64,000 bases of DNA, from positions 48,928-112,927 of the IMG/VR virus record IMGVR_UViG_2974620381_000001; one strand, written 5' to 3'. Shown piece by piece: positions 8,716 to 62,554 of this stretch; position 1 is the first letter of the stretch; each line of letters starts with the position of its first letter. The position numbers were made by a program, and so were the translations under genes. The notes beneath the pieces were generated by a model, which saw nothing but the letters and a program-made list of their open reading frames with translations, had not been told where the DNA came from and did no database searches. Source of the DNA: a virus. Lineage: Duplodnaviria; Heunggongvirae; Uroviricota; Caudoviricetes; Demerecviridae.

Positions 8716-8720
8716 AATTT

Positions 8721-32507: not shown

Positions 32508-32600
32508 TAAGCCCTGCGTTCCCTGGAGAGCGCAGGGCTTTTCTGTATTTAAGATAAAAGAAAAGCCCCTAAGTCTTTCGACTAGGGGCTTTATTGTTTG
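32508..32600. terminator. two tandem hairpin terminators between convergent SPFH and Q-rich genes (second one bidirectional)
   Basis: GCCCTGCG...CGCAGGGC+TTTTCTG and GCCCCTAG...CTAGGGGC flanked by T-runs on both strands. Confidence 0.6.
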
Positions 32601-32809
32601 GTTCCTTAGAACCATATACTCTTGTTACAGCAACCACCCATACGGGAGGCCAATCTTGACTGAAAATCTACTCTAGGGGGCAGGATAAGAGTAGGCTTAA
32701 AGGCAAACGGATTGAACGCCGGTATTTGCGTAAACATTGCTGGAGAGCAACAACGTGCTACAGGCATTGGGCAGCACGAAACAGATTTTCTGCAACACAT
32801 AATTTCTCC

Positions 32810-33238: not shown

Positions 33239-33259
33239 AATGGGCTCCTCCCCTTAATA

Positions 33260-34255: not shown

Positions 34256-34307
34256 CTCCTAGTATGTAGAAAATGTGTGTCTCTTTGATCACTCATCCAT
34301 AACATAT

Positions 34308-34336
34308 ACTTTATACTACTCCAGCGAAAATGTCAA
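34308..34336 (-). promoter_or_regulatory. sigma70-like promoter TTGACA-17-TAAAGT for the 331-aa low-complexity protein gene
   Basis: Hexamers on minus strand; differs from the T5 early-promoter style used elsewhere. Confidence 0.5.
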
Positions 34337-34452
34337 GGGGTCTTTAAAAATTGCCCCCGGATTTTTAGTGGGGTCACAAATTTTGGTCCTCACCACTTAT
34401 CTGCTACCCTTAAGCGCCCTATGATTTTCCTCTAAAAAGTTAAAAAATTTGA

Positions 34453-34481
34453 TTGCTTGAATGCTAAATTCTCTGTATAAT
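34453..34481 (+). promoter_or_regulatory. T5-type promoter
   Basis: TTGCTT-17-TATAAT. Confidence 0.6.
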
Positions 34482-34511
34482 ATATCTATAAATTTGAGAG
34501 AGGAACCAAAT

Positions 34512-35030
34512 ATGAATGTTGATGAGCTAACACAGCACCTCTTATCTATGGGATTTGATACTGATAAATATCATTGCTGGTTAAGTCCGGAAGGATGGCT
34601 AACAGTCCCGTTGTATGATTTCTCTGGGATGTTGAGGGGCTATCAAACTTATAATCCTTCTGCTCCAAAAGGTCATGGTAAGTGCCCCTTTGAAGCTAAA
34701 TACTTTACTTATTCTACCACCCAGTGTGTATGGGGACTAGAAACTCTCAATGGAGATGAAAAAGTAGTATTGATCGCTGAATCTGTATTTAAGGCAGTTG
34801 CGTTACATAACGCTGGGTATCCAGCCCTGGCAATGTTGGGTTCTTCTCCAGGAAAAGCGTTATTAAAGCAACTGAAATTACTACCTTTTAAATTGGTAGC
34901 TGTCGGAGATAATGATCCTGCGGGTGAAAAATTTGCTAGAAAATTAAACGGCTTTGTTTCTCCTGTAGATGTGGATGAGATGTCTACCGAAAACTTGAAA
35001 AATTTTCTTGCTATGAAGCTAAATTTCTAA
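34512..35030 (+). CDS. Toprim-domain protein (primase-like)
   Basis: 172 aa; VVLIAESVFKAVAL (E) ... LVAVGDNDPAGEKFARKL (DxD) Toprim motifs; start moved to ATG 34512 after GAGAGGAACC (track start is inside promoter). Confidence 0.5.
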   Translation: MNVDELTQHLLSMGFDTDKYHCWLSPEGWLTVPLYDFSGMLRGYQTYNPSAPKGHGKCPFEAKYFTYSTTQCVWGLETLNGDEKVVLIAESVFKAVALHNAGYPALAMLGSSPGKALLKQLKLLPFKLVAVGDNDPAGEKFARKLNGFVSPVDVDEMSTENLKNFLAMKLNF

Positions 35031-35036
35031 TATAAT
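35008..35036 (+). promoter_or_regulatory. T5-type promoter driving tRNA-Ser/tRNA-Met
   Basis: TTGCTA-17-TATAAT overlapping 3' end of the Toprim gene. Confidence 0.6.
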
Positions 35037-35051
35037 ATATCTTATAAATTC

Positions 35052-35137
35052 GGAAGAATAGCATAACGGTATTGCAGCAGATTGCTAATCTGTCGGTTTG
35101 AAATATAGCCTTGTGGGTTCGATTCCCACTTCTTCCG
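35052..35137 (+). tRNA. tRNA-Ser (anticodon GCT)
   Basis: Acceptor GGAAGAA/TTCTTCC, anticodon loop TTGCTAA, long variable arm, T-loop TTCGATT, CCA encoded. Confidence 0.7.
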
Positions 35138-35146
35138 CCAGATTTT

Positions 35147-35221
35147 GGTTCTCAAGCTCATATGGTATGAGCACCCGGCTCATAACCGGAAGGTACGTAG
35201 GTTCGAATCCTCGGGGAGCCA
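35147..35221 (+). tRNA. tRNA-Met (anticodon CAT; fMet, Met or Ile2 not distinguishable)
   Basis: Acceptor GGTTCTC/GGGAGCC (2 G-U), anticodon loop CTCATAA, T-loop TTCGAAT, CCA encoded. Confidence 0.6.
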
Positions 35222-35243
35222 CCAAATTAAATAAGGACAATTA

Positions 35244-35432
35244 ATGGAATTATTCATAGTTTCTGTTAAATTTGCACAAGATAGAGAACGTTCGGACGAG
35301 TTTAAACAAGGGTACAGACTAGTAAAGGCTACATCCGAACTCCATGCTATGGACAAAGTAGTAGACTATATGTATAATGTAGAAGATGTTTACTACGTCA
35401 ATGCTTTAGAAGCCTCAAAAGTAATTGACTAA
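35244..35432 (+). CDS. hypothetical protein
   Basis: 62-aa ORF after tRNA pair. Confidence 0.4.
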   Translation: MELFIVSVKFAQDRERSDEFKQGYRLVKATSELHAMDKVVDYMYNVEDVYYVNALEASKVID

Positions 35433-35441
35433 GGAGACTAT

Positions 35442-35627
35442 ATGTCCAAGTTTCAAGAACTCAAGCAAGAGCTAGAAGAGTGTGCCTGCCCTGAGTGTAG
35501 GGGAATTGGTGAAAGTTCTGATGCAGAAGCAGGAGATACTTTTTGCAATATCTGGGTTTGCCCAAATTGCAATGGTACAGGTATTAATCCTAACTGTGGT
35601 ATTTCTCTAGATATTGAAAGAGGATAA
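35442..35627 (+). CDS. small zinc-finger protein with DnaJ-type CxxCxGxG repeats
   Basis: 61 aa; CPECRGIG and CPNCNGTG motifs. Confidence 0.45.
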   Translation: MSKFQELKQELEECACPECRGIGESSDAEAGDTFCNIWVCPNCNGTGINPNCGISLDIERG

Positions 35628-35727
35628 TACCTGTGAAACTAAAAGATTATTATATTGGTTGGTTTGTGGGACTAGTAGTAGGATTTTCACTAGGCTATAA
35701 TATGTATCAACTAATAAACTGATTACA

Positions 35728-35801
35728 CGGGGGGTGTAATCGAATTGGCATAGGTACTGGACTTAAAATTCAGGTTTTGTGGGTTCGAATCCCACCACCC
35801 C
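35728..35801 (+). tRNA. tRNA with anticodon TAA (Leu-type anticodon) but short variable arm
   Basis: Acceptor GGGGGTG/CACCCCT, anticodon stem CTGGA/TTCAG with loop CTTAAAA, T-arm GTGGG-TTCGAAT-CCCAC, CCA encoded; D-arm poorly paired. Confidence 0.5.
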
Positions 35802-35821
35802 TACCAAATTAAGGAAATAAG

Positions 35822-35989
35822 ATGTATAGACATCCACCTCCGCCAACACGTCGTTCTAGGGAAGTCATCCTTATGGAATTGACTAAAAACTTCAAGGCAA
35901 CTCTTGAAGATAGAGATCTAGGCACGGATGAAGATATTGATTTTATTTGTAGACTATTAAAGATGAAACTGGAGAAACAACATGGCTAA
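35822..35989 (+). CDS. hypothetical small protein
   Basis: 55-aa ORF with AAGGA SD, overlaps next ORF start. Confidence 0.35.
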   Translation: MYRHPPPPTRRSREVILMELTKNFKATLEDRDLGTDEDIDFICRLLKMKLEKQHG

Positions 35990-36188
35990 TCCTGAAATTA
36001 CCGCACAACGTTTCATGCTTAAAGGCATGATTGCTGAGGCAGGTATAACTCAAGAGGTTGCAGATTTTCATAAGCAATTTCTTGACATTATAACTCTAGC
36101 TAAAGAGACTGGAGAAAAAGAACATGGAGCGGCAATTATGGCTATATCTCTTATTAGTCTAGACTTGGCTGAAGAATCTGGAGTTTAG
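35982..36188 (+). CDS. hypothetical protein
   Basis: 68-aa ORF. Confidence 0.4.
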   Translation: MANPEITAQRFMLKGMIAEAGITQEVADFHKQFLDIITLAKETGEKEHGAAIMAISLISLDLAEESGV

Positions 36189-36278
36189 CTCCTCCAAACA
36201 GAATTTTTAAAAATGTACTTGCCTTTTGCTTTAAATTTCTGATATAATAGTTATATAAATTGATGAAGGAGTTAACTA

Positions 36279-36554
36279 ATGCAAAATCGTGTTATAGCAG
36301 CTGGTATTGAAAGTGCAATCTGTAAATCCTGGGAAGGCTGGGAAGGTGAGATTGAATGGCTTTATTTCTATGATGTAGAACTTCTGCCGGAAGTTAAAGC
36401 TAAATGTGTTGAAGCTGGCATGGCTCCGGATGCAAAAGCTGATATTGATATTTCAATGTCTGAACTTAAAGGTCGTGTAGTTACCGTTAGTAATGAGGGG
36501 GAAGAAGTTTTCGAACTTCCATTCTCCTTAACTGTCACTCCTAAGTTCGACTAA
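36279..36554 (+). CDS. hypothetical protein
   Basis: 91-aa ORF after promoter ~36219-36249. Confidence 0.45.
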   Translation: MQNRVIAAGIESAICKSWEGWEGEIEWLYFYDVELLPEVKAKCVEAGMAPDAKADIDISMSELKGRVVTVSNEGEEVFELPFSLTVTPKFD

Positions 36555-36590
36555 CTAATACAGCACTGAGCAAGTTCTTTAAAATTTGAC

Positions 36591-36619
36591 TTGCTCAGTG
36601 CCTTAAAACTTGGTATAAT
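36591..36619 (+). promoter_or_regulatory. T5-type promoter driving tRNA-Tyr/Glu/Trp/Phe block
   Basis: TTGCTC-17-TATAAT. Confidence 0.55.
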
Positions 36620-36685
36620 AGTTATCTAATTTGGAAACATATTTAAAAGTGTTTAAATTAGAATATTTTGAATACTTCTAAATAT

Positions 36686-36770
36686 GGGGAAATATTCTGT
36701 AAGTGGTAGCAGAGCTGACTGTAAATCAGTTGTCATTGCGACTCGGGTGGTTCGACTCCATCTTTCCCCA
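36686..36770 (+). tRNA. tRNA-Tyr (anticodon GTA)
   Basis: Acceptor GGGGAAA/TTTCCCC, anticodon loop CTGTAAA, 15-nt variable arm, T-loop TTCGACT, CCA encoded. Confidence 0.7.
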
Positions 36771-36779
36771 CCAATTTAA

Positions 36780-36853
36780 GTCCTGTTAGACAAACTGGTA
36801 AAGTCACTACCCTTTCAAGGTAGGATTTGCGGGTTCGATCCCCGCACAGGACG
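36780..36853 (+). tRNA. tRNA-Glu (anticodon TTC)
   Basis: Acceptor GTCCTGT/ACAGGAC, anticodon stem-loop CTACC-CTTTCAA-GGTAG, T-loop TTCGATC, CCA encoded. Confidence 0.75.
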
Positions 36854-36864
36854 CCAATTCCTGC

Positions 36865-36938
36865 ATTCCTAGAGTGTTACTGGACAGCATGTCGGTCTCC
36901 AAAACCGTACGGTCTAGGTTCGAGTCCTAGTAGGTTTG
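36865..36938 (+). tRNA. tRNA-Trp (anticodon CCA), acceptor stem with two U-U mismatches
   Basis: D-stem GTGT/GCAT, anticodon loop CTCCAAA, T-arm CTAGG-TTCGAGT-CCTAG, CCA encoded; acceptor ATTCCTA/TAGGTTT pairs 5/7. Confidence 0.5.
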
Positions 36939-36948
36939 CCAAAAATTT

Positions 36949-37020
36949 GCACCTTTAGCTGAGATGGATTAGCGCTTGCCTGAAGAGCTTGAGAGGTTCG
37001 TTCGATACGAACAGGGTGCA
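36949..37020 (+). tRNA. tRNA-Phe (anticodon GAA)
   Basis: Acceptor GCACCTT/AGGGTGC, anticodon loop CTGAAGA (stem has two U-U mismatches), T-arm GTTCG-TTCGATA-CGAAC, CCA encoded. Confidence 0.55.
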
Positions 37021-37039
37021 CCAAATTGAAGGAGCTGCT

Positions 37040-37304
37040 GATGCATCCTGAAAACTTCTTTATTTACTGCGCGGATAAGTCGCTGAAACGTAGAATTAAC
37101 AAAGTCTATCATTATCGTGCTAGTCAACAGCCTTATGTATATGCTTTTGATGATGATCACATTCCACTAGAACAATTATCTTGTGATTACATGATATTGA
37201 AGAACTTTGACGAGACAAAGATCTCAAGCGTTCATAATCGACAGAATCCATTAACGTGGAAATATAAGAAGAAAAAGAAAGGCATCAAATTTTTAAAAAT
37301 GTAG
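37040..37304 (+). CDS. hypothetical protein
   Basis: 88 aa; start at ATG 37040 after AAGGAG. Confidence 0.45.
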
Positions 37305-37333
37305 TTGCTTAGTTTCCAAAAGTTCTGTATAAT
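37305..37333 (+). promoter_or_regulatory. T5-type promoter
   Basis: TTGCTT-17-TATAAT. Confidence 0.6.
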
Positions 37334-37362
37334 AATTACATAAATTGAACTGGAGAAGCAAC

Positions 37363-37587
37363 ATGACAGAACAAGAGTTGAATGAACGTAAGCTGGTAAT
37401 GCTTCGCTTACTAAATATTTTCTCTGGTATGGACGGTGGAATTGACTTTGTTCATCTACGTTCCTTCGTAGAAGAAGCTGAAGGCGAATCTATCACTAAA
37501 ATCCTTAAACACATGGGATTACTTTTAGATGCTGCTAATGTGGCTACTGAATATAAACTAGAAGATCTACCGGAGCGTGTTAAATGA
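37363..37587 (+). CDS. hypothetical protein
   Basis: 74 aa; start at ATG 37363 (MTEQEL) after CTGGAGAAG; promoter 37305-37333. Confidence 0.45.
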   Translation: MTEQELNERKLVMLRLLNIFSGMDGGIDFVHLRSFVEEAEGESITKILKHMGLLLDAANVATEYKLEDLPERVK

Positions 37588-37775
37588 AACGTTTAGTTAG
37601 ATTTAAGTGTTGTGGTTCTGAACATGTTTTCACACATCTTCGTGAATTTAAAATGTGTGATTGTGGTAAATCAGGCTATGACTTAGGAGATGGGTTCTAC
37701 ACCCGTACTCTAGGGAACTTCAATGATCTAGAATTTGAAGATCTCGAAAAACAAGATAAATCGACCGTTGGCTGA
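37584..37775 (+). CDS. Cys-rich small protein (putative zinc-binding)
   Basis: 63 aa; CCGSEH...CDCGKSG. Confidence 0.4.
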   Translation: MKRLVRFKCCGSEHVFTHLREFKMCDCGKSGYDLGDGFYTRTLGNFNDLEFEDLEKQDKSTVG

Positions 37776-37834
37776 ATGGCTTAGGCGAAGGATTGCAAAT
37801 CCTTTTTATGTGAGTTCAAATCTCATGCGGTCGT
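37762..37834 (+). tRNA. tRNA-Cys (anticodon GCA)
   Basis: Acceptor CGACCGT/GCGGTCG, anticodon stem-loop AAGGA-TTGCAAA-TCCTT, T-loop TTCAAAT, CCA encoded. Confidence 0.75.
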
Positions 37835-37840
37835 CCAATT

Positions 37841-37987
37841 TGCTGAAAGAATTGTTAAATCAATTCAGGCACGCGTAGGAACACTGTCTCCGTAATTGAA
37901 AGATGAGGCACGGTTTGGAGAGGTATGCCGCTACACGCTACGGTGCTAACTCCGTCTAGGTGAAAATCCTAGTCAGCAATATAAATT
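37841..37987 (+). ncRNA. structured tRNA-like/ncRNA element
   Basis: TTGCTGA (37841-47) complementary to TCAGCAA (37976-82) flanking a T-arm-like hairpin CTAGG-TGAAAAT-CCTAG (37959-75) with non-canonical loop. Confidence 0.25.
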
Positions 37988-37989
37988 TA

Positions 37990-38069
37990 GGGTCGTTAGC
38001 CAAGCGGTTTGGCGGTGGACTGTTAATCCATGTCGAAAGACAACGTAGGTTCGAATCCTACACGGCCCG
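37990..38069 (+). tRNA. tRNA-Asn (anticodon GTT) with extended variable arm
   Basis: Acceptor GGGTCGT/ACGGCCC, anticodon loop CTGTTAA, 13-nt variable arm, T-loop TTCGAAT, CCA encoded. Confidence 0.65.
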
Positions 38070-38174
38070 CCAAATTCTGTGTAGAGTTAAGTAAACCGGT
38101 AGCCAACCAGCTATCATTGCTGATATCGAATTCAGCCACAGATACCATTTTCATTAATAACTGAGGAAACAAGC

Positions 38175-38360
38175 ATGTCCAAGAATGTAATTGCGCAGCT
38201 AGAAGTTCATCGTGATAGCACTATCAACAATATTGAAGTTGAGAAGAAATACATCGAAGAACTTAAACATGATATACTAGTAAGTCTTAATCGTCTTAAT
38301 GTACGAAAAGAGTTTCTTAAGGAACTTAATGCAGCTATTGAAAAACTCAAAGCTGAGTAA
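38175..38360 (+). CDS. hypothetical coiled-coil protein
   Basis: 61-aa ORF. Confidence 0.4.
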   Translation: MSKNVIAQLEVHRDSTINNIEVEKKYIEELKHDILVSLNRLNVRKEFLKELNAAIEKLKAE

Positions 38361-38369
38361 ATGAATTAT

Positions 38370-38443
38370 GCGACCGGGGCTGGCTTGGTAATGGTACTCC
38401 CCTGTCACGGGAGAGAATGTGGGTTCGAATCCCATCGGTCGCG
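38370..38443 (+). tRNA. tRNA-Asp (anticodon GTC)
   Basis: Acceptor GCGACCG/CGGTCGC, anticodon stem-loop CTCCC-CTGTCAC-GGGAG, T-loop TTCGAAT, CCA encoded. Confidence 0.75.
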
Positions 38444-38629
38444 CCAAACAATTAGGGTACAGAGTAGGTAAAGGTAGGGGAGGTCACATATGGTCTTTAG
38501 ACGGATATGCTCTGGGGCTTCCGACTAGAAAGCTGCTTTACCGCGCCCTAGCCACAATAATTAAGCAAATCCCTCTTTTTCACAGGAGAGGGTATTTGAA
38601 GAAATTCTTACGAGAGATTCTTCAAATAT

Positions 38630-38702
38630 ACATCCATAGCTCAATGGTTAGAGCTACCGCCTCTTAAGCGGAGGGTTCTAGGTTCAAGTCCTAGTGGGTG
38701 TA
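38630..38702 (+). tRNA. tRNA-Lys (anticodon CTT)
   Basis: Acceptor ACATCCA/TGGGTGT, D-stem GCTC/GAGC, anticodon loop CTCTTAA, T-loop TTCAAGT, CCA encoded. Confidence 0.65.
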
Positions 38703-38731
38703 CCAAACTAAACTAGTACGAGAAATACGCT

Positions 38732-39079
38732 ATGATTAATGCTAAAGAAGAGTTGTTACTTGCCCTAAAGAATACTAAGTCTGAAGTTAAGTGTATTAAG
38801 ATAGAATTCGGTTATTATGGGGACAAAGAAGTCTGGGTATTACCAGTAGGTTATACAGAAAAAGATATTGAAGATTTTCTAAATAATCTAGACTTTAAAT
38901 ATGATTCTGGTTTCGGTGGACAATTGCTTTATGGTAACGTATGGTTTACTGATGGAACTTGGTTAGAACGTGGTGAATATGATGGTTCTGAATGGTGGGA
39001 ATATAAGACTACACCAGCAATCCCTGAGGAATGCCGAACAATTAATGGTGAAGTAGATAATACTTTACGGTTAAACTAA
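38732..39079 (+). CDS. hypothetical protein
   Basis: 115-aa ORF. Confidence 0.45.
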   Translation: MINAKEELLLALKNTKSEVKCIKIEFGYYGDKEVWVLPVGYTEKDIEDFLNNLDFKYDSGFGGQLLYGNVWFTDGTWLERGEYDGSEWWEYKTTPAIPEECRTINGEVDNTLRLN

Positions 39080-39201
39080 TAAAATTTCAGTGCAGAACAC
39101 GGAGCTAGCAATTCGGAAGTGCTGACTCATGATAAGCTGCCTATGTACTTGCGAAGCGGTCGTGTCCAAGACTCGGACTCTTGCACTGAAAACAATCAAA
39201 C

Positions 39202-39322
39202 ATTCTAGCGTGGTTGATGGGGAAACCAGCTTGGCGAGGGCAGAAGCTCGTTCGATTCGAGTGAAAGAATGGTTCTCGTAAGTCCGCACAAGTGATAACA
39301 GGTTCGAGTCCTGTCTAGAATG
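39202..39322 (+). ncRNA. tRNA-like element with ~48-nt insertion (121 nt between matching acceptor strands)
   Basis: 5' ATTCTAG (39202-08) is exact complement of 3' CTAGAAT (39315-21) flanking T-arm ACAGG-TTCGAGT-CCTGT (39298-39314); D-arm TGGT/ACCA present; contains a second T-arm-like hairpin GCTCG-TTCGATT-CGAGT at 39246-62. Confidence 0.3.
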
Positions 39323-39471
39323 ACACTATAAAGTTTACTTATTATGTAGGTTCCGGTAGACCGGCGGGTCTATTCTGGCATTTAAGAGAGGTCTCGCAAG
39401 CCTCTTTGTCAGCCGTGGGGTTCATAGCCTCCAGGTGGCCTACACAATAAGTAAATTTATTAAAAATTCAT

Positions 39472-39500
39472 TTGCTATTCTGCTTAATTCTCTGTATAAT
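39472..39500 (+). promoter_or_regulatory. T5-type promoter
   Basis: TTGCTA-17-TATAAT. Confidence 0.6.
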
Positions 39501-39532
39501 ATATCTTATAAAGTGAAGAGAAGGAAAGCTAA

Positions 39533-39730
39533 ATGAAGAAAGTTTTATTACTATCTGTATTCCTACTTACTGGTTGTTTTAAATTTGACTCAACCATTAA
39601 TAAAGAGTATGAATTTGCTAAAAATTTCTGTGGCGGGGAGAGTAATATAAAGAATTTCTACATATATAGTACAATTCCTAGTACCGTTTATTGTGTAGAC
39701 GGACGAATTATTAATATTCCTCCACAATAA
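39533..39730 (+). CDS. small lipoprotein
   Basis: 65 aa; signal peptide with lipobox LLTGC; promoter 39472-39500. Confidence 0.45.
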   Translation: MKKVLLLSVFLLTGCFKFDSTINKEYEFAKNFCGGESNIKNFYIYSTIPSTVYCVDGRIINIPPQ

Positions 39731-39739
39731 AAGAATTAA

Positions 39740-39812
39740 CAGTGCGTAGCGCAGTTGGTAGCGTGGGAGCTTTGGATGCTTCGGGTCGCAGGTTCGAGTC
39801 CTGCCGCACTGA
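39740..39812 (+). tRNA. tRNA-Pro (anticodon TGG)
   Basis: Acceptor CAGTGCG/CGCACTG, anticodon loop TTTGGAT, T-loop TTCGAGT, CCA encoded. Confidence 0.75.
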
Positions 39813-39821
39813 CCAAACAAT

Positions 39822-39896
39822 TGCGGGTTAGATCTCTGGTAGAGATCACTAGTCTCATAAGCTAGAAAGAGGTAGGTTCGATTCCTGCACCCGCTT
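39822..39896 (+). tRNA. tRNA with anticodon CAT (Met or Ile2)
   Basis: D-arm GATC-TCTGGTAGA-GATC, anticodon stem-loop CTAGT-CTCATAA-GCTAG, T-loop TTCGATT, CCA encoded; terminal acceptor pair mismatched. Confidence 0.6.
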
Positions 39897-39919
39897 CCAT
39901 TTTAATAGAGGATTTCGAA

Positions 39920-40087
39920 ATGAAAGTATTTCGATTAGTAGTAAGTGACAAACGTTTAGGTAAGAATACATCAAAATCCTTACTTGCTCATTACGGTAAA
40001 AATTGGGATGAAGTAATGGTAGAGTTTAGTACTAATCACCCCTACTTAAAAGTCCACTCTATTAAAGAAGTATACAATGGTTACTAA
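39920..40087 (+). CDS. hypothetical small protein
   Basis: 55-aa ORF with GAGGA SD. Confidence 0.35.
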   Translation: MKVFRLVVSDKRLGKNTSKSLLAHYGKNWDEVMVEFSTNHPYLKVHSIKEVYNGY

Positions 40088-40088
40088 T

Positions 40089-40164
40089 AGATCGCTAGCT
40101 CAATAGGTTTAGTAGCATCCGACTTTTAATCGGAAGGTTCTGGGTTCGAGTCCCAGGCGATCTA
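40089..40164 (+). tRNA. tRNA-Lys (anticodon TTT)
   Basis: Acceptor AGATCGC/GCGATCT, anticodon stem-loop TCCGA-CTTTTAA-TCGGA, T-loop TTCGAGT, CCA encoded. Confidence 0.7.
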
Positions 40165-40185
40165 CCAATTTCAAGAAAAATGCAG

Positions 40186-40215
40186 TTGCTTAATGCTTAA
40201 TTTCTTGTTATAATA
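40186..40215 (+). promoter_or_regulatory. T5-type promoter upstream of HNH-endonuclease leader
   Basis: TTGCTT-18-TATAAT. Confidence 0.55.
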
Positions 40216-40459
40216 TTTATATAAATTGATGAGAAGAGATCCTCATCATAGTTCACTAAGGTATTAGCTCGACCTAGGACTGGCTGCCAAAAAGCACGAT
40301 CCCTACGATTCGGGAGAAGTTCTAGATTAGTCCACTAGATTCAGCGGCAACTGAATAGTGTATCGGGTTTGCGAGATGACGCGGTTCCTTCCGCTTGAAG
40401 CGAAGGTGCTGTAGTTACGCCGAGCTAATAGCCTTAGTAAACTTACAGGGGTTAACGCA

Positions 40460-40846
40460 GTGTGTACAAAAACATGTAGAGCCTGTGGGAATGAATATCC
40501 GTTAACAACCGAATATTTTTATTCGAATGGATTTACTCCTAATGGCACAAAGAAGTGGAAGCCAACATGTAAAGCATGTGAAAAAGCTGAACGAGTAGCT
40601 GGACATGAAGAATTAATTAAAGAAGTATTTCCTGTATTAGAATGTAGTATTTGTGGATATAATAGGTGTAAACAAGCCCTAGATTTCCACCATACTAATC
40701 CAGAAGAAAAGGAATACTCCATTGCAAGGTTTAGAACTTCTCGTAGAAACAGAGAAGTAGTAATAGCAGAACTTAAAAAGTGCGTACTATTATGCTCTAA
40801 CTGCCATAGAGAAGTACATGCTGGATTAATAAATTTGGGCGAATAG
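40460..40846 (+). CDS. HNH endonuclease
   Basis: 128 aa, GTG start; Cys-rich N-terminus and HNH motif DFHHTNPEEK...NCHREVH. Confidence 0.65.
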   Translation: MCTKTCRACGNEYPLTTEYFYSNGFTPNGTKKWKPTCKACEKAERVAGHEELIKEVFPVLECSICGYNRCKQALDFHHTNPEEKEYSIARFRTSRRNREVVIAELKKCVLLCSNCHREVHAGLINLGE

Positions 40847-40908
40847 TGTCAGCGGGAGCACACCAGACTTGCAATCTGGTAGGGAGGGTTCGAGTCCCTC
40901 TTTGTCCA
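40837..40908 (+). tRNA. tRNA-Ala (anticodon TGC)
   Basis: Acceptor GGGCGAA/TTTGTCC (G-U pairs), anticodon stem-loop CCAGA-CTTGCAA-TCTGG, T-loop TTCGAGT, CCA encoded. Confidence 0.7.
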
Positions 40909-40916
40909 CCAAACAT

Positions 40917-40990
40917 GCGTGATTGATGGAATTGGCATACATACCGTCCTTAGAAGTCGGGTTTTGAGGGTTCGAATCCCTTGTCACGCA
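40917..40990 (+). tRNA. tRNA with anticodon TAG (Leu-type anticodon) but short variable arm
   Basis: Acceptor GCGTGAT/GTCACGC, anticodon loop CTTAGAA (stem 4/5), T-loop TTCGAAT, CCA encoded. Confidence 0.5.
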
Positions 40991-40995
40991 CCAAA

Positions 40996-41069
40996 TTTGA
41001 TGGTCAGAGTAAATTAAACCTACTATCTCGGTTGAGCTGTTTTAATGGGTTCGAATCCCAGCGAGGCGT
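40996..41069 (+). tRNA. tRNA-like element, not foldable (possible pseudogene)
   Basis: Canonical T-arm TGGG-TTCGAAT-CCCA at 41046-41060 but no matching acceptor strand or anticodon arm; no CCA. Confidence 0.3.
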
Positions 41070-41105
41070 AACTGCCTGGCGTGATAGAGGCATCATCTTA
41101 TTATT

Positions 41106-41193
41106 GGAAGAGCAAATCGAATTGGCGACGAAAACCGCTTGGAAAGTGGCTGACTGGTAAAACGGCTTGAGAGTTCAAATCTCTCCTCTTCCG
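41106..41193 (+). tRNA. tRNA-Ser (anticodon GGA)
   Basis: Acceptor GGAAGAG/CTCTTCC, 3-bp D-stem, anticodon loop TTGGAAA, long variable arm, T-loop TTCAAAT, CCA encoded. Confidence 0.6.
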
Positions 41194-41203
41194 CCAAACA
41201 AAT

Positions 41204-41290
41204 GGAAGGTAGGGCGTAGTGGTACGCAACTAGTCTTGAAAACTAGCCCGCTGTAGTGATACGGTGATGGTTCGACTCCATTACCTTCCT
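41204..41290 (+). tRNA. tRNA-Ser (anticodon TGA)
   Basis: Acceptor GGAAGGT/ACCTTCC, D-stem GCG/CGC, anticodon stem-loop CTAGT-CTTGAAA-ACTAG, 19-nt variable arm, T-loop TTCGACT, CCA encoded. Confidence 0.7.
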
Positions 41291-41312
41291 CCAATTAACT
41301 ATAAGGAATCAT

Positions 41313-41486
41313 TATGAGCAAAACAGTTACTGTAACAATGAAGGACGGTAAAAAATTTAAAGCATGCCTTCATGAAACAGATAAGGGATGGATGGCTTAT
41401 TTGCCACACCTAGATTCCACTGGGTATGGAATGACCCAACGTGAAGCTATTGTTGATGCTTTAAATGAGGCTTCTGCTGGTTTATA
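41313..41486 (+). CDS. hypothetical small protein
   Basis: 57-aa ORF, AAGGAA SD. Confidence 0.35.
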
Positions 41487-41855
41487 AAAATTCTTGAAGT
41501 ATGCCGGAATCGGTAGACGGGGCTGCCTAAAAGGTTTATAGGGAACATCCACTCCCTGCAATATACCTCATAAAGCGGCTGAGATAAATGGTCTATCTCG
41601 TGAAGGTTCAAGTCCTTCTGCTTCTTGATATATCTATGGCTCAAAGTGTAACGGTGCTATTTGATGCTCTTAGTAAGACTTTCCCGACATGCGTTCGGGA
41701 GTAAGCTGCTAAGACTAGAGTAGAAGAGTTTCTGAGAGCCGCCACAATTGAAAATTCGTACTCGTCTTGAGCTGCGTGCAACAGGAGATAACTTGATTAG
41801 TATTCTAGAACATGCTAATTGAGGATGGTTTCGCTAACCCTGCGAGTTTTCAATT

Positions 41856-41929
41856 GTGGCTATATCATAATTGGTTAATGATCCTGATTGTGAATCAGGC
41901 CTATGTGGATTCGAATTCCACTAGCCACC
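41856..41929 (+). tRNA. tRNA-His (anticodon GTG)
   Basis: Acceptor GTGGCTA/TAGCCAC, D-stem TCAT/ATGA, anticodon stem-loop CCTGA-TTGTGAA-TCAGG, T-loop TTCGAAT, CCA encoded. Confidence 0.75.
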
Positions 41930-41957
41930 CCAGATTAACTTAAATAGGAAATAAAAT

Positions 41958-42155
41958 ATGGCTGAGTTCTGCAAACAATGCTCCATTGATATGTGGGGCA
42001 GAGATACTGGTGACTTATCTGGTTTGATTACAGAAGCTGAGGTCAAAGAAGGTTATGGTGCAGTTGTGGTTTGCGAAGGATGCGGAGTTATTCGAGTAGA
42101 TCATGAAGGCAAACGTTTAGAAGAACCGGAAAACTTAGGAGAAACAAATGAGTAA
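41958..42155 (+). CDS. hypothetical Cys-containing protein
   Basis: 65 aa; CKQC...CEGCG. Confidence 0.4.
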   Translation: MAEFCKQCSIDMWGRDTGDLSGLITEAEVKEGYGAVVVCEGCGVIRVDHEGKRLEEPENLGETNE

Positions 42156-42384
42156 TGCTTTAATTAGTGAAATTATGTTAACACGTCTTGCAGAACTGCA
42201 AACTCTTCGAGATGAATCTCAGAATAACTTATCCTACCATAAACAGATGGTAGATACTCTTACTACTCGTATTGAAACTTACGAGCGTGATATTGCAGCA
42301 TTACAAGCTCTTTTCTCTGTATCAGCACCAGATACACTAGAACAGCCTGTCGTATCTCAGCCGGTAGAAACAGCATCTAGTTAA
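42148..42384 (+). CDS. hypothetical coiled-coil protein
   Basis: 78-aa ORF overlapping previous stop. Confidence 0.4.
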   Translation: MSNALISEIMLTRLAELQTLRDESQNNLSYHKQMVDTLTTRIETYERDIAALQALFSVSAPDTLEQPVVSQPVETASS

Positions 42385-42393
42385 TAGCATTCT

Positions 42394-42466
42394 TGGGGTG
42401 TAGATCAATTGGCAGATCGTCGGCCTCTGACTCCGAAGGTTCCTGGTTCGATCCCAGGCACTCCAG
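42394..42466 (+). tRNA. tRNA-Gln (anticodon CTG)
   Basis: Acceptor TGGGGTG/CACTCCA, D-stem GATC/GATC, anticodon loop CTCTGAC, T-loop TTCGATC, CCA encoded. Confidence 0.6.
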
Positions 42467-42475
42467 CCAAACAAT

Positions 42476-42548
42476 TGGAGAGTAGTGTAACGGTTAGCAC
42501 AACGGCCTTTGACTCCGTTAATGGTAGGTTCGATTCCTCCTTCTCCAG
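42476..42548 (+). tRNA. tRNA-Gln (anticodon TTG)
   Basis: Acceptor TGGAGAG/TTCTCCA, D-stem GTGT/GCAC, anticodon loop CTTTGAC, T-loop TTCGATT, CCA encoded. Confidence 0.6.
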
Positions 42549-42558
42549 CCAAATAATA

Positions 42559-42632
42559 AGCGGTTAAGCACACGGGTTGTGTCGCAGGCCTTCCAAGCCT
42601 CGCTGAGTAGGGTTCGATTCCCTCTAGCCGCT
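42559..42632 (+). tRNA. tRNA-Gly (anticodon TCC)
   Basis: Acceptor GCGGTTA/TAGCCGC, anticodon loop CTTCCAA, T-loop TTCGATT, CCA encoded. Confidence 0.6.
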
Positions 42633-42651
42633 CCAACTTTAAGGAAACATT

Positions 42652-42903
42652 ATGCACGTTTTTGAGTTTCGTAATAAAAGTACCGATAAACGAGTTATTG
42701 TTATTGGAGAAACATACCGAGCATACGAACAAACTGACGGCTCTGTTATCCTGAATGATGAGAAAGGAGGTTTTAGCTTTTATCCAGAAGAACCTTATGA
42801 AGAGTTTCGAAAACAATTTAACCTAGACTGGAGAAAGCATTTAAACACTGTTGCTTCATCTGTAGTATTGCCAACTACCAGTACTGTACTCTCTAATGGC
42901 TGA
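42652..42903 (+). CDS. hypothetical protein
   Basis: 83-aa ORF. Confidence 0.4.
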   Translation: MHVFEFRNKSTDKRVIVIGETYRAYEQTDGSVILNDEKGGFSFYPEEPYEEFRKQFNLDWRKHLNTVASSVVLPTTSTVLSNG

Positions 42904-43060
42904 CAACCTAAAAGTCAAGATTGATAAACAAAAGAAACGTGTAGAAGTAGAGATTGGTGAAGAACGTGTAGCCTTCACCTTTGAATTTCTTCAGCAGTTG
43001 GCAATGGCAGTTATGACTGATAAGTCTCCTGTTATTGAAAAAGAAATCCCGTTAAAATAA
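42896..43060 (+). CDS. hypothetical small protein
   Basis: 54-aa ORF; ATG overlaps previous stop (ATGGCTGA). Confidence 0.35.
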   Translation: MADNLKVKIDKQKKRVEVEIGEERVAFTFEFLQQLAMAVMTDKSPVIEKEIPLK

Positions 43061-43070
43061 CGGGATCATC

Positions 43071-43141
43071 GCTCCTAAAGCATTGCTGGCGATGCAGTTG
43101 CCTTGTAAGCATCTGAACCGGGTTCGATTCCTGGTGGGAGC
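43071..43141 (+). tRNA. tRNA-Thr (anticodon TGT)
   Basis: Acceptor GCTCCTA/TGGGAGC, D-stem GCAT/ATGC, anticodon loop CTTGTAA, T-loop TTCGATT, CCA encoded. Confidence 0.7.
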
Positions 43142-43160
43142 ACCAAATTTAAAAATTCAT

Positions 43161-43189
43161 TTGCCTTCTCTCTTATTTCTTGTTATAAT
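43161..43189 (+). promoter_or_regulatory. T5-type promoter
   Basis: TTGCCT-17-TATAAT. Confidence 0.55.
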
Positions 43190-43219
43190 ATCTAATTAAA
43201 TTAATGAGAGGGAAACCAA

Positions 43220-43510
43220 ATGAAACGTTATCTTTCTATTGTATTCCAAACTGGTGGCCAAAGATATACCTATGAATTTCCATCTTCTTGGAAAATCAAA
43301 GAAGGTGATCAAGTAGTTGTGCTAACTCCGCGTGAGGGATATAAAGTAGTAACGGTTAAACAAGTATTTCCAAAAGATCATGAGCCTGCTAGAGGCATCC
43401 GATATAAGATGATTCATGGTGTGGTTCGTCAAGTACCACGAACTGAGGTAGAAGTAGGTAAGAATGGAGAAACTAAATTCCATTATACTTCTTACCTAGA
43501 TAGTGTGTGA
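43220..43510 (+). CDS. hypothetical protein
   Basis: 96 aa; promoter 43161-43189. Confidence 0.45.
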   Translation: MKRYLSIVFQTGGQRYTYEFPSSWKIKEGDQVVVLTPREGYKVVTVKQVFPKDHEPARGIRYKMIHGVVRQVPRTEVEVGKNGETKFHYTSYLDSV

Positions 43511-43525
43511 TGTAAATATTTTAAT

Positions 43526-43599
43526 GCTTCGGTAGCTTAGCGATCTAAAGCACTCGGCTGATAACCGAGAGATCGGGGGTTTAAATCCCTCCCGGAGTA
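43526..43599 (+). tRNA. tRNA-Ile (anticodon GAT)
   Basis: Acceptor GCTTCGG/CCGGAGT, D-stem GCTT/AAGC, anticodon stem-loop CTCGG-CTGATAA-CCGAG, T-loop TTTAAAT, CCA encoded. Confidence 0.7.
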
Positions 43600-43698
43600 C
43601 CAAATTTAGGAATTAAGACTATGCGTCCAGGAAAGTTTAAAAAAGCTAATTGGTCTAAAGAGTATAAAGAATACTTACTTAGTCTAGTAAAATATAGC

Positions 43699-43770
43699 AG
43701 TTAGTTGGCAGAGTGGTTATGCACCTCCTTCATACGGAGCGACTACAGTGGTTCAAATCCACTACTAACT
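43699..43770 (+). tRNA. tRNA with anticodon CAT (Met or Ile2), third CAT copy
   Basis: Acceptor AGTTAGT/ACTAACT, anticodon loop TTCATAC, T-loop TTCAAAT, CCA encoded. Confidence 0.6.
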
Positions 43771-43797
43771 ACCAAATTCTAACATCGGGGAGATCTA

Positions 43798-59589: not shown

Positions 59590-59936
59590 TGATACTTGGT
59601 AAAACAAAAATAACTTCTGCTGGTGACGATTTAATTACTCTTAGTCTTTACTATAAAGATGAAAATGTAGAAATAGAAACACTAGAGTATATTCTAATAA
59701 CTACTAATAAGCCCAAAATAGGAGAGTTATTTGATATAATATCTAGAGTCTCTGCTAGGGAAGATGTTCCAAGTATAACACCAAAGAATATAGCTCACTT
59801 AGCACAACAACTAGGAATCCTGTGGTATAAAGTAGATCTTCCAGCTAAAGAAAGAACCAAAGGAACCTTTGCAGAGGTTGCAAGAAAACCTAAGACAGAA
59901 AATAAAGAAACAGGGGAGCAAGCGTCTGATATATGA
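59589..59936 (+). CDS. hypothetical protein carrying helicase-like C-terminal tail ...ETGEQASDI
   Basis: 115 aa; last 8 residues identical to C-terminus of the DnaB-like helicase (2141-3613). Confidence 0.5.
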   Translation: MILGKTKITSAGDDLITLSLYYKDENVEIETLEYILITTNKPKIGELFDIISRVSAREDVPSITPKNIAHLAQQLGILWYKVDLPAKERTKGTFAEVARKPKTENKETGEQASDI

Positions 59937-60646
59937 TTAAAGAAGCCGAAAAATTAAAACGTCTCATTCAGTTAGCGCGTGGTGCTACACAAAAGAGCCT
60001 TTCTCAGCTAACTGATGAAGAAAAATATGCAGTAATGTTTTTAGGAGATCATTATCCTGCTAAGTGGGATAAAGGTAAGATCAAATATGATCGTGATGCA
60101 AAACGAGTAGTTTGGTCAGGCTCATATGTGGAGGTGAATAAAGCGTTGAAAGCTTTAGATCCTGAAGCAAAGGGTTTCTCTTCTAATGCTATTCATATTC
60201 TAATCGATGAAGATCTCCCAAGATTTAAGGAAGCATCATTTAAAGAAGCATTAGCTAGCGAAGATCTTATCCCTTTCAAACATGGCAAATATGCCCACCT
60301 TCCTCCACTAGAAAAAGAGAAACCAACTCTAGTTAAAGATGAAGTTTATCGTGGGATTGGCACGATGTTAGCGAGTTTGACTGTAGCTCTCCATAAAGAT
60401 CTAGAGTTAACGCCCTTAGAAAATGCTGTGCATTTCATGTGTCATAAATACGAAGATACATTTAAAGAGCTATGTAAGTCGCTAGGAATGCCAAGTTACA
60501 CGATATTAAACTACGCTCCTGAGTATACTAGAGCAGCTCGCGGAACTATGGATTACGATGATACAGGATCCACTGCTTCCTATTTAGCAACTTATATCTA
60601 CTTCGCATCCTTAGGTATCAAACTCAAATCCAAGAAGGAGGAATAA
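59933..60646 (+). CDS. hypothetical protein
   Basis: 237-aa ORF; last gene before the 1.7-kb repeat region. Confidence 0.5.
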   Translation: MIKEAEKLKRLIQLARGATQKSLSQLTDEEKYAVMFLGDHYPAKWDKGKIKYDRDAKRVVWSGSYVEVNKALKALDPEAKGFSSNAIHILIDEDLPRFKEASFKEALASEDLIPFKHGKYAHLPPLEKEKPTLVKDEVYRGIGTMLASLTVALHKDLELTPLENAVHFMCHKYEDTFKELCKSLGMPSYTILNYAPEYTRAARGTMDYDDTGSTASYLATYIYFASLGIKLKSKKEE

Positions 60647-60696
60647 AAGTTAACAAAAAGTTCTTGCATTCTCATACCCAAACATGTTATAATAAT

Positions 60697-60866
60697 CTCA
60701 TAGATTAACAACTACTCTAGTTGATTAACTCTAGGGGCGATGATTATTACACGAATGTCTCGTATAGCTTGCGGCCTAGCAACAGCGGTATGACGGCATG
60801 AGTACTCACGTAATTAATCACGCGCCCCCAGGAGAGACTCTCATGAAATTGGGGGTCTCTTTTTCT
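60697..60866 (+). ncRNA. candidate small RNA (promoter-to-terminator unit, ~170 nt, no ORF)
   Basis: Promoter TTGCAT-18-TATAAT (60664-60693); downstream GC hairpin (CCCCCAGGAGAGAC...GGGGGTCTCT) plus TTTTTCTTTAT at 60815-60866. Confidence 0.4.
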
Positions 60867-61020
60867 TTATATTATTTAAATATTTTTAATGGCAATATCT
60901 GTGTTCAAGATGATACACCTGTTGCCGTTCATCTGCTAGGATGGCACAACACTTTCTTCTAGACTCCTAAGTTTCTAGGAATAGTTGAGCACAAATTCTA
61001 GAGATCACACTAAAATATTC

Positions 61021-61757
61021 ATCGGATTTGCACATATTCTAGGGCAGTTTTCTTCTCATATTATATTCTTTAGGCCGGTTTTCCTATATAGGGCGGTTTT
61101 AGGGAGGGCGGTTATTTCTAGAAGACATTTTTCGAAAACACATTTCCAGAAATTACTGTCGGATTTGCACACTGATATTCTAGAAATTTATGGTCGGATT
61201 TGCACAAACGCCTAAGTTTTTAGGAACTCTTACTCTCCTGAAAATAGCAGCATTATTTCGGGCCGAAGGCCCATGATTGCCTGAGTTTTTAGAGCCACAG
61301 AAATTTTCACTTGTCAAGCTATTTTGCCCCATTTTGCTAATAAAATTTTACTTTATCTGCACCTATCCCAAATCTTCCCAAATTATCTCAACTCTTCCCC
61401 AAAATCCCCGCAAATCAGGTGCTCCGCACCAAACATGCGCCCCATCCTTCTAGCCCCCAAATTTCTCTCGCTCTCTCATCTTCTCCTCAAACCCACACAA
61501 TCACACACCCTCCAATCGAAGTCACAAAAATCTTGTCGGATTCGCACAAATAAACTCATGTCGGATCTGCTCATACTCTAGCTAATTCCACAGGATTGAT
61601 GCGCAGCATCGGATTGCTGGAGTTTTTAGGAAAATTCATTGTCGGATTTGCACACTATAAAAATTTTTCGGGTCGGATTTGCACACTACCAAAAATTGTC
61701 GGATTCGCACATACATGCCCGCACGTAACACCCGTGGAGCAATGTCGGATTTGCACA
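61021..61757. repeat. nine dispersed 14-bp iterons GTCGGATTTGCACA (two with 1-2 mismatches)
   Basis: Copies at 61021, 61158, 61193, 61535, 61560 (degenerate), 61641, 61672, 61698, 61744; all same orientation. Confidence 0.8.
61360..61530 (+). other. G-poor polypyrimidine (C/T/A) tract of ~170 nt
   Basis: Plus strand contains almost no G between 61360 and 61530 (ccc/ctc/tcc runs). Confidence 0.7.
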
Positions 61758-61789
61758 AAAGCGCAGGGCAATTGCCCTGCGCTAAATAC

Positions 61790-61990
61790 GAATGATAATA
61801 AGAATCATTCTCATTTAAAAAGCGGAATGAGAATGATAATAATTCGCATTTAGAAAGTGAAATGAGAATCAATCTCATTTAAGAAAGGGAATGAGAACTA
61901 TTCAAAAAGTGAAATGATTATCGGTTAGATAGTGGAATGTGAATGATAATAATTCGCATCTAAGAATGGAAGTGAGAAACACTGTTATTT
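61790..61990. repeat. array of GRAATGAGAA(T) repeats with internal palindromes
   Basis: At least six copies (cGGAATGAGAATg, tGAAATGAGAATc, gGGAATGAGAACt, tGAAATGATTATc, tGGAATGTGAATg, GGAAGTGAGAAAc); perfect palindrome AAATGAGAAT-c-ATTCTCATTT at 62298-62318. Confidence 0.7.
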
Positions 61991-61993
61991 AAG

Positions 61994-62086
61994 TTATCCA
62001 CAGACTTATCAACAGCACGATTTGATTTGACAGAATCCTAGCCATTTTGAAGCGTTATTAACAGACTTATCCACAGCTTATCCTAC
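61994..62086 (+). promoter_or_regulatory. DnaA-box cluster (2 perfect TTATCCACA + 3 one-mismatch variants) embedded in 18-bp direct repeat ACAGACTTATC[CA]ACAGC
   Basis: TTATCCACA at 61994-62002 and 62067-62075; TTATCAACA 62007-62015; TTATTAACA ~62055; TTATCCTAC 62078-62086. Confidence 0.65.
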
Positions 62087-62359
62087 TGTATAAATATACA
62101 GTATTCCTATGCAGTGAATAATTCTAATATACCGCTAAAACGTCCTGAATCGCATTCTAACGCGTTTAATTTTGGTGGGGATACTAAAACAAGGGCAAAA
62201 TTGGAGGAGGCTTAAAAATTAGTTAGCCCGCTAACGATCACACAAGGCGACACGTAACACCCTAATCATTAGCAGGCTAACCATCGCGAGCGCGGTCAAA
62301 TGAGAATCATTCTCATTTGAGAATTGGGGGCACTCCCTGGTAGTTGCGCCCCGTGATTA

Positions 62360-62554
62360 TTAGTCTGGTAGTCGATGCGTGATTTTTTCCTCCTCCCCGT
62401 AGGAATCCACCAAATGCTGATAATAACCATCGTGATCATAAATCACTTTATCATACTCGCCACGCTCGACCGCTTGCCGGTTTTCCGGCGTATCGGGCAC
62501 ATAAAAAACGTCAACCATTGTGGTAGTTTTGGTTACAACAATTTTATTGCTCAT
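62360..62554 (-). CDS. hypothetical protein
   Basis: 64-aa ORF, first gene after the repeat region, opposite orientation to early genes. Confidence 0.4.
   Translation of the reverse strand: MSNKIVVTKTTTMVDVFYVPDTPENRQAVERGEYDKVIYDHDGYYQHLVDSYGEEEKITHRLPD

Follow-up and report, generated by a model that had tools for sequence, protein, structure and literature searches.

The RNA unit described here occupies positions 60664-60869 (+) of the window, by which we mean the whole 64-kb stretch of DNA that was analysed, and it consists of a promoter, a folded region of ~168 nt and an intrinsic terminator. The 301 bases around the unit match Salmonella phage vB_Sen_I1 with 100% identity and both BF23 and HdH2 with 99% identity, and we assign the window to a BF23/T5-like phage (Tequintavirus), with its + strand reversed relative to the conventional T5 orientation. 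Immediately upstream lies the coding sequence 59933-60646, which is the last gene of the leftmost early operon; searches of the neighbouring proteins against Pfam and PHROGs return only families of unknown function. The GC content over the RNA is 0.48-0.50, compared with 0.28-0.38 in the flanks. Elsewhere in the window, 23 tRNA genes are clustered at 31429-43774, all on the + strand, an arrangement typical of T5-like phages.

The position of the unit relative to the ends of the phage genome can be derived from the database records of BF23 and T5, in which the left terminal repeat is annotated at 1-9743 and 1-10219, respectively. On these annotations, the repeat boundary in the window is at about 61250-61300, and the unit lies outside the left terminal repeat at a distance of about 400 bp. 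The T5 record also places an "injection stop signal" (iss) at 9140-10149 and the major nick at 9748/9749, and it describes the terminal repeat as the DNA that enters the cell first. Since its slot lies just beyond the terminal repeat, the unit would lead the transcription units that enter the cell when transfer resumes in the second step, and we infer that it is the first to be expressed after second-step transfer.

This fixed slot is common to Tequintavirus, Epseptimavirus and Sugarlandvirus (223 and 168 phage records matched). Nearly all records contain a single copy of the unit, including a 120-kb record with both terminal repeats, and a few have it in two places or lying within the annotated repeat. 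Public annotation at the locus consists at most of a terminator (one HdH2 record) or of short hypothetical ORFs, and the RNA unit is missing from the T5 and BF23 annotations that were examined and from Rfam. In many T5-like relatives a 118-aa GIY-YIG gene, annotated as "homing endonuclease P-TflXVII", separates the last early gene from the RNA promoter (2658-3014 in locus L002, 1065-1421 in L013, 165-521 in L014-L017 and 170-529 in L025). This gene is not found in the window and its occurrence is independent of the class of the RNA; where it separates the cassette from the operon, both the RNA cassette and its promoter are undisturbed.

Promoter and predicted ends of the transcript

An A-rich, UP-element-like stretch (60646..60663, +) follows the stop codon of the coding sequence 59933-60646 and precedes the -35 hexamer, and it presumably functions as an UP element; the block (A)AACGTTAACAAAA..TTCTTG upstream of the -35 is kept in relatives, including those with the endonuclease insertion. 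The -35 hexamer itself, TTGCAT (60664..60669, +), is of the T5-type TTGC form, and an 18-nt spacer separates it from an extended -10, TGtTATAAT (60685..60693, +), with the TG at 60685-60686 and TATAAT at 60688-60693. The earlier note had described a TTGCAT-18-TATAAT promoter, and the element lies where it was described, with the addition of the extended -10 TG. The -10 lies in a 25-nt block, ATGTTATAATAATCTCATAGATTAA, in which one T/A position varies and which is otherwise invariant, with T5 wild type differing. The invariant block ATGTTATAATAATC(T/A)CATAGATTAA takes in the TG-extended -10, the discriminator and the initial nine bases of the transcript, and among the classes only T5 wild type departs from the otherwise invariant -10, discriminator and positions +1..+9. 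Transcription is predicted to start at A60700, 7 nt after the -10.

Most relatives have a -35 of TTGACA or TTGACG, and their equivalent promoter obtains a scanner score of 12/12 with the TG. Across more than 40 loci (alignments of 15-30 distinct loci), the hexamers are conserved and the spacer varies freely, and conserved hexamers with a drifting spacer are the pattern that would be expected of a working promoter. The generic promoter scanner does not list this promoter in the window, because TTGCAT agrees with TTGACA at only three of six positions. The motif TTGCWW-N16-18-TATAAT, however, occurs in 26 copies in the window, where shuffles predict 0.35 and none of them contains as many as 26, and TTGCAT-18-TATAAT belongs to this promoter class of the phage's own. 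The 26 TTGC(T/A)(T/A)-N16-18-TATAAT promoters can also be used directly as a map of promoters in this half of the genome, and one of them, at 8684-8712 (-), matches what we take to be the classical T5 P_N25 sequence.

At the other end of the unit, the terminator scan identifies an intrinsic terminator hairpin of 14 pairs (60830..60863, +), which contains CAUGAAAUUGGGGG and is followed by TCTTTATATT, with the U-run at 60860-60868; the hairpin and T-run that the earlier note had seen downstream of the promoter are thus recovered as a 14-pair stem with its U-run. The hairpin works only on the + strand because many of its pairs are G-U. The U-tract UUUUUCUUU (60860..60869, +) opens an almost pure A/T tract of ~30 nt that extends to about 60890. 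With the 3' end placed by prediction in the U-run after the hairpin, the predicted primary transcript spans 60700..60868 (+) and is ~165-170 nt in length, both of its ends being predicted. Within the 3' hairpin, no class departs from the G-run at 60851-60855, T5 wild type and Sugarland included.

The terminators of relatives are weaker: the scan finds one in T5_ev219 and none in HildyBeyeler, those of several classes are weak by standard criteria, and the 3' hairpin of the N5 type is short of two pairs, so that read-through may be common. In the window, the scan finds no terminator between the stop codon at 60646 and position 60830. The upstream operon therefore shares the terminator of the unit, and the unit could equally be a 3'-UTR element.

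Sequence classes and predicted fold of the RNA

The homologous slot was gathered from 47 loci drawn from GenBank phages, IMG/VR and metagenomes. Downstream of the promoter block, the sequences fall into at least nine classes, plus a truncated tenth type. Class A1 contains the window, BF23 and HdH2; class A2, N5 and VEc33; class A3, DT57C, T5_ev219, S124 and OSYSP; and class A4, LVR16A, fuchur, Th1 and SSP1. Class B is represented by chee24 and Klebsiella phage 150049, class C by UTK0009, and class D by HildyBeyeler, GSW6, Ob_P and many metagenome contigs. Class E is T5 wild type, which has its own promoter and 5'-end variant, and class F is Klebsiella phage Sugarland. The class D RNA of HildyBeyeler (Tequintavirus Bas33, MZ501074) is located on the + strand at about 97,028-97,221 of that record, and in T5 the unit is found at about 10,650-10,880, on the minus strand. 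All classes are 167-215 nt in length and have one layout, in which a 5' hairpin at +8..+28 is followed by a closed long domain and then by the 3' hairpin/terminator. The long domain is closed by (C)UCUAGG.../...CCUAGAG-type pairing and by a GAUUAU/AUAAUC helix with an asymmetric internal loop, the 3' side of which is CACGCG in several classes, and the 3' hairpin contains in all classes an invariant (A/U)GGGGG followed by A/U-rich sequence.

In the window, the RNA begins with the invariant 5' end AUAGAUUAA and the 5' hairpin (60700..60733, +), the core of which is CAACUA/UAGUUG (60709-60714 / 60718-60723). Seven sequence versions of this hairpin occur at the same position with pairing kept (for example, AAAACAA/UUGUUUU and ACAAUAA/UUAUUGU), and GSW6 of class D has an A-U to G-C double change in it. 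The 5' strand of the basal helix, GGGGCGAUGAUUAUUACA (60734..60751, +), with CUCUAG before it, is identical in all A-class phages, and other classes have an analogous CUCUAGG..GAUUAU in this place. The variable distal domain of class A1 (60752..60808, +) is a long irregular hairpin with an apical UUGC-GGCCUA-GCAA, and it is followed by the 3' strand of the basal helix, CGUAAUUAAUCACGCGCCCC (60809..60828, +), with the CACGCG(CC) internal-loop segment that is common to several classes.

Among A1-A4 the basal strands are identical and the distal parts, of ~57-61 nt, differ. Pairwise alignment of the distal parts is clear for A1/A2 (z 7.8) and weak for A2/A3, A3/A4, A3/E and E/F (z 2.9-4.1), and for all other pairs of classes it is no better than for shuffled sequence. 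Judged from these comparisons, the distal domain is replaced between phage lineages on a constant scaffold. As a separate observation, the short motif U(U/A)GCG(G/A) seems to recur in six classes (A1-A4, E and F; 60777-60782 in the window), placed apically or nearly so in distal domains that are otherwise unrelated, and it may constitute a common recognition element. The distal domains of T5 wild type and Sugarland also have GUAGCG..GGAG..CG.AGCGA in common.

The + strand of 60700-60870 folds with a minimum free energy of -63.2 kcal/mol and a z-score of -6.1 to -6.6, with none of 200 shuffles folding as well, and the z-score of the opposite (-) strand is -4.1. In all nine classes the fold beats dinucleotide shuffles, with z from -2.7 to -6.9, and in eight of the nine the greater stability is that of the + strand. 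A column-wise count of covariation across classes is not meaningful because the distal domains are not alignable; the tests of structure used were per-class folding, a per-module comparison and a within-class comparison of paired and unpaired positions. Compensatory changes are seen in the stems of the 5' hairpin and the terminator. Within classes, 2.9% of paired positions are variable versus 7.9% of unpaired positions (odds ratio 0.35, Fisher p = 6e-4), and several within-class changes lie in the apical loops of otherwise identical RNAs. The compensatory and loop-biased substitutions support the proposal that selection acts on the structure of the RNA, loop-biased variation by itself being explained equally well by a simple structural constraint and by specificity switching.

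Coding potential, similarity searches and the downstream repeats

The earlier note had reported that no ORF lies between the promoter and the terminator. Two mechanical ORFs do exist here, one of 26 aa at 60721-60801 and one of 54 aa at 60798-60962, and what stands of that statement is that neither is conserved. In BF23 and VSe12, at otherwise ~99% identity, indels of 1 nt break the frame of the 54-aa ORF, and neither frame can carry over to the other classes because the central sequence is different there. On comparison with the relatives, then, no ORF at the unit is conserved.

Searches for known RNAs gave no match to the unit. With permissive thresholds, the best Rfam match over it, to a Plasmodium RNA (E = 0.48), reaches 22.8 bits where the threshold is 70, nothing in Rfam matches on the RNA in seven other classes, and neither in the window nor in 10 relatives does ARAGORN call a tRNA or tmRNA at the locus. 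A BLAST search with the RNA of nine classes against 5,426 complete E. coli genomes returned no match at E <= 10. Examined as a possible mimic of a host RNA (an antitoxin RNA, a CRISPR repeat or a retron ncRNA), the unit has no sequence similarity in the E. coli genomes at the sensitivity of BLAST, a search that short or wholly structural mimicry would escape. Sites complementary to the RNA, to its invariant 5' end or to the G-run occur only at chance level in the 64-kb window, as assessed by short-word BLAST and motif search. The literature on T5 promoters and primer extension, on the T5 RNAP-binding protein, on the iss comparison and on the BF23 genome describes no RNA here; the Bas33 transcriptome and anti-retron papers are likewise silent on an RNA at this locus, and no discrete transcript at the locus is reported in the T5, BF23 or Bas33 literature examined. 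RNA-seq data for Bas33 taken 20 min after infection are available (PMC13250531).

Several specific identities were considered and rejected. One was the T5 anti-retron factor "Rad", which is a protein of 189 aa with its gene at another location. A K-turn or C/D-box reading of GAUGAU fails because the opposite strand is without the required GA, and mimicry of the CRISPR I-E repeat fails on strand polarity. The T5 nick-site motif is not present in the unit, the nick sequence AAAA^GCGCAGGG being different. A 6S-like RNA or a Y RNA was rejected on the grounds that no model matches and that the topology is inconsistent between classes, and a T7-type class II pause signal in the downstream block was rejected because T5 has no T7-like polymerase.

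Downstream of the terminator, the A/T tract of ~30 nt is followed by a block of ~90 nt and then by families of repeats. The ~90-nt block, GGCAATATCTGTGTTCAAGATGATACACCTGTTGCCG..CTAGGATGGCACAACACTTTC..CCTAAGTTTCTAGGAA (60891-60981), folds into an imperfect hairpin (z -2.3). It hardly varies across Tequintavirus and Epseptimavirus, where its conservation exceeds that of the adjacent genes and the RNA, and it is missing in Sugarland. Nine 24-mers of the GTCGGATTTGCACA type (61013-61759), three outside and six inside the terminal repeat, are the "iterons" of the earlier note. The AATGAGAATGATAATAATTCGCAT / TGATAATAAGAATCATTCTCAT repeat units, Fur-box-like and of the GATAATGATAAT type, lie at 61793-61995, 62295-62323 and 62418-62439 (span 61793-62439), and their arrays resemble what we take to be the Fur box, GATAATGATAATCATTATC; binding sites for an iron regulator in first-step-transfer DNA would be worth a look. 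A C-rich tract at 61330-61510, just inside the terminal repeat, has a GC skew of -0.6 to -0.87 on the + strand and contains CCCCCAAATTT, which is roughly complementary to GAAAUUGGGGG of the RNA, a complementarity that is probably due to chance. Two perfect DnaA boxes, TTATCCACA (61994-62002 and 62067-62075), are situated inside 24-nt direct repeats, which is consistent with the DnaA boxes that Davison describes for the iss region (bioRxiv 10.1101/866236). A perfect palindrome, GCGCAGGGCAATTGCCCTGCGC, with AAAA before it (61761-61783), is homologous to the T5 major single-strand interruption, at which the nick leaves 5'-GCGC. The "iteron" region corresponds to DNA that the T5 record annotates as the injection stop signal, and it is not a known or demonstrated origin.

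Interpretation and comparison with known systems

The discrete, non-coding promoter-to-terminator unit of ~170 nt proposed in the earlier note is backed by its conservation, by the structure statistics and by the comparative data, and we consider it highly probable that the unit is a real non-coding RNA gene. As the best explanation overall, and one that we hold with modest confidence, the unit is a structured ncRNA gene with its own promoter and with a constant scaffold bearing an interchangeable domain, the product of which is an early RNA that acts in trans. A discrete and abundant early RNA is presumably made from it. According to this model, an RNA family would fill one fixed slot after the leftmost early operon in T5-like phages, and the host sigma-70 RNA polymerase would transcribe the unit from its own strong T5-type promoter, so that the RNA would be made fast, in quantity and early in infection, and would act in trans as a folded molecule. 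The constant scaffold, made up of the invariant 5' end, the 5' hairpin, the basal helix with its asymmetric internal loop and the 3' hairpin with GGGGG, would give stability or a common handle, and recognition of a particular host or phage factor would fall to the variable distal domain, perhaps with the RNA serving host takeover or counter-defence as a decoy, sponge or adaptor. The searches for complementarity in the window and for similarity in E. coli identified no partner or target, and the specific trans-acting scaffold/decoy mechanism is a tentative proposal that we regard as possible yet doubtful. An extension of it is that the locus is a cassette in which a fixed expression and scaffold module displays a domain exchanged by recombination in the conserved flanks, providing a fast and abundant RNA decoy or inhibitor of variable host factors such as immune effectors or RNases. 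This is an unlikely reading in our estimation; if true, it would be an RNA counterpart of the hypervariable protein loci of anti-defence.

One alternative is that the unit encodes a base-pairing sRNA of the Hfq/ProQ type, in which the 5' end AUAGAUUAA or the G-run is the seed and the body serves only for stability. Its own promoter and an intrinsic terminator with a U-tail constitute the usual layout of an enterobacterial sRNA, the first ~9 nt are invariant and the first six of them are unpaired in the predicted folds of classes B, C and D, and the G-run is invariant while its pairing partner changes between classes. However, the 64-kb window contains no site complementary to the 5' end or to the G-run beyond chance, the 5' end is different in T5 wild type, and its invariance elsewhere may reflect only the constraints of the promoter and the initial transcribed region. 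The large conserved architecture also exceeds the needs of a seed carrier, and since the helical architecture is conserved and a whole structured domain varies, the scaffold/decoy mechanism is favoured over a seed-type sRNA. This preference is a weak one, and we regard a base-pairing role as unlikely. A second alternative is that the element is mainly the 3' end of the operon, either as a terminator with a protective structured 3' UTR or as an insulator for the injection-stop and terminal-repeat DNA, with the promoter being secondary. Operon transcripts must cross the element and stop at the same hairpin, since no terminator is found before 60830, and any stable structure would serve such a purpose, which would explain free change of sequence with stability kept. 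It is difficult to reconcile with a consensus extended -10 promoter that has hexamers conserved across genera, lies directly before the element and drives nothing else. Moreover, the basal helix, CACGCG and GGGGG are conserved as sequence, which stability alone would not need, and the cassette stays with the promoter when the endonuclease gene parts it from the operon. We regard a mainly 3'-end function as quite unlikely.

A further possibility is that the unit acts in cis on the neighbouring DNA, for example in origin activation or priming, in R-loop formation, in repeat duplication, or in packaging or second-step transfer. Transcription is directed toward the boundary of the terminal repeat, and the ~30-bp A/T tract, the near-invariant 90-bp block and the repeat families with their DnaA boxes all follow the unit. 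The invariant G-run before the A/T tract is also reminiscent of primer RNAs that form persistent hybrids, such as ColE1 RNA II and the T4 origin transcripts, and the terminators are weak in some classes. The earlier note had suggested a transcript that reads into the iteron region and activates or blocks an origin-like element. In the window, however, the first repeat copy is at 61013, about 150 nt beyond the strong terminator of the unit, and since this terminator would stop the transcript before the repeats, which are annotated in T5 as the injection stop signal and not as an origin, the idea of origin activation loses its support. Sugarland, furthermore, keeps the cassette although the adjacent conserved block is missing and part of the downstream DNA is different, and a role in transcription only would leave both the selection on the RNA fold and the swapping of the distal domain unexplained. 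Indeed, conserved structure together with a swappable domain points to a function of the RNA molecule itself and not of transcription through neighbouring DNA, and we therefore judge cis action to be improbable. Finally, an AUG inside the 3' hairpin (window 60843-60962), with AGGAG upstream, opens the reading frame MKWG(Y/T/I/L)..F*, of 8 codons in many relatives, and could encode a micro-peptide or leader peptide, the translation of which could modulate termination. Here CAUGAAAUGGGGG is nearly invariant, and a Shine-Dalgarno-like AGGAG or GAGGA lies 8 nt upstream in the window and in DT57C. Against this, the frame is not kept, being AUG UAA in the N5/VEc33 type, AUA in UTK0009 and 39 codons in the window versus 8 elsewhere; chee24 and Sugarland have no AUG, and there is no downstream gene on the + strand for a leader to regulate. 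A peptide product is thus a very remote prospect. The reading that we prefer continues to be the trans-acting structured RNA.

T5 and BF23 are classical model phages in which the switch from pre-early to early expression and the two-step entry of DNA are still poorly understood. The unit has a consensus-strength promoter, is conserved in at least three genera and would be the first to be expressed after second-step transfer, and, if expressed as predicted, the RNA would add a non-coding player to early T5 infection. The same promoter features, namely a TTGC-type -35, a 17-18-nt spacer, TATAAT, A/T-rich upstream sequence and an A start in a CATA context, are found in T5 early promoters such as P_N25. 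The promoter of the unit differs from the P_N25-type early promoters in that it drives a non-coding unit and not an operon, and in that its relatives carry the full TTGACA consensus with an extended -10.

Small RNAs with their own transcription are known from other phages and prophages, including lambda OOP, P22 Sar, the T4 species 1/2 "RNA C/D", DicF and IpeX. The unit resembles these in being short, non-coding and early and in having its own sigma-70 promoter for the host polymerase and an intrinsic terminator. It differs from them in having no sequence or covariance-model match to a curated family and in not being antisense to a neighbouring gene. Compared with typical seed-type sRNAs, it is much more structured and has an interchangeable, lineage-specific domain. 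Putative sRNAs have also been mapped in PhiKZ/LUZ7 (PMC10884466).

The unit can also be compared with the transcripts that prime or activate origins. Such transcripts include ColE1 RNA II and the R-loop transcripts of T4 ori(uvsY) and ori(34). Like these, the unit has a strong promoter and a structured RNA with a G-run ahead of an A/T-rich tract, and it lies close to repeat-rich DNA. In contrast to them, its canonical terminator precedes the repeats, no origin is known at the site, and the scan finds no promoter for an antisense regulator on the opposite strand of the unit.

A working analogy for the organisation of the RNA is provided by RNAs that combine a scaffold with a variable module, such as Y RNA/YrlA and 6S RNA, in which, as here, the 5' and 3' parts pair in a basal helix with an internal loop, the distal part is lineage-specific and the length is similar, at 170-200 nt. 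The unit is not matched by the Rfam models of these RNAs, however, and neither a conserved Ro-binding bulge nor a 6S central bubble is evident in it. Its distal topology varies between classes from a hairpin to a multi-branch fold and is therefore a poor fit to one conserved protein ligand. If expressed as predicted, the unit and its relatives would constitute a natural series of RNAs that share a scaffold and bear different distal domains. Set beside these systems, the unit is an unannotated and uncurated family of structured phage RNA with an unusual organisation, in which a scaffold is combined with a swappable domain.
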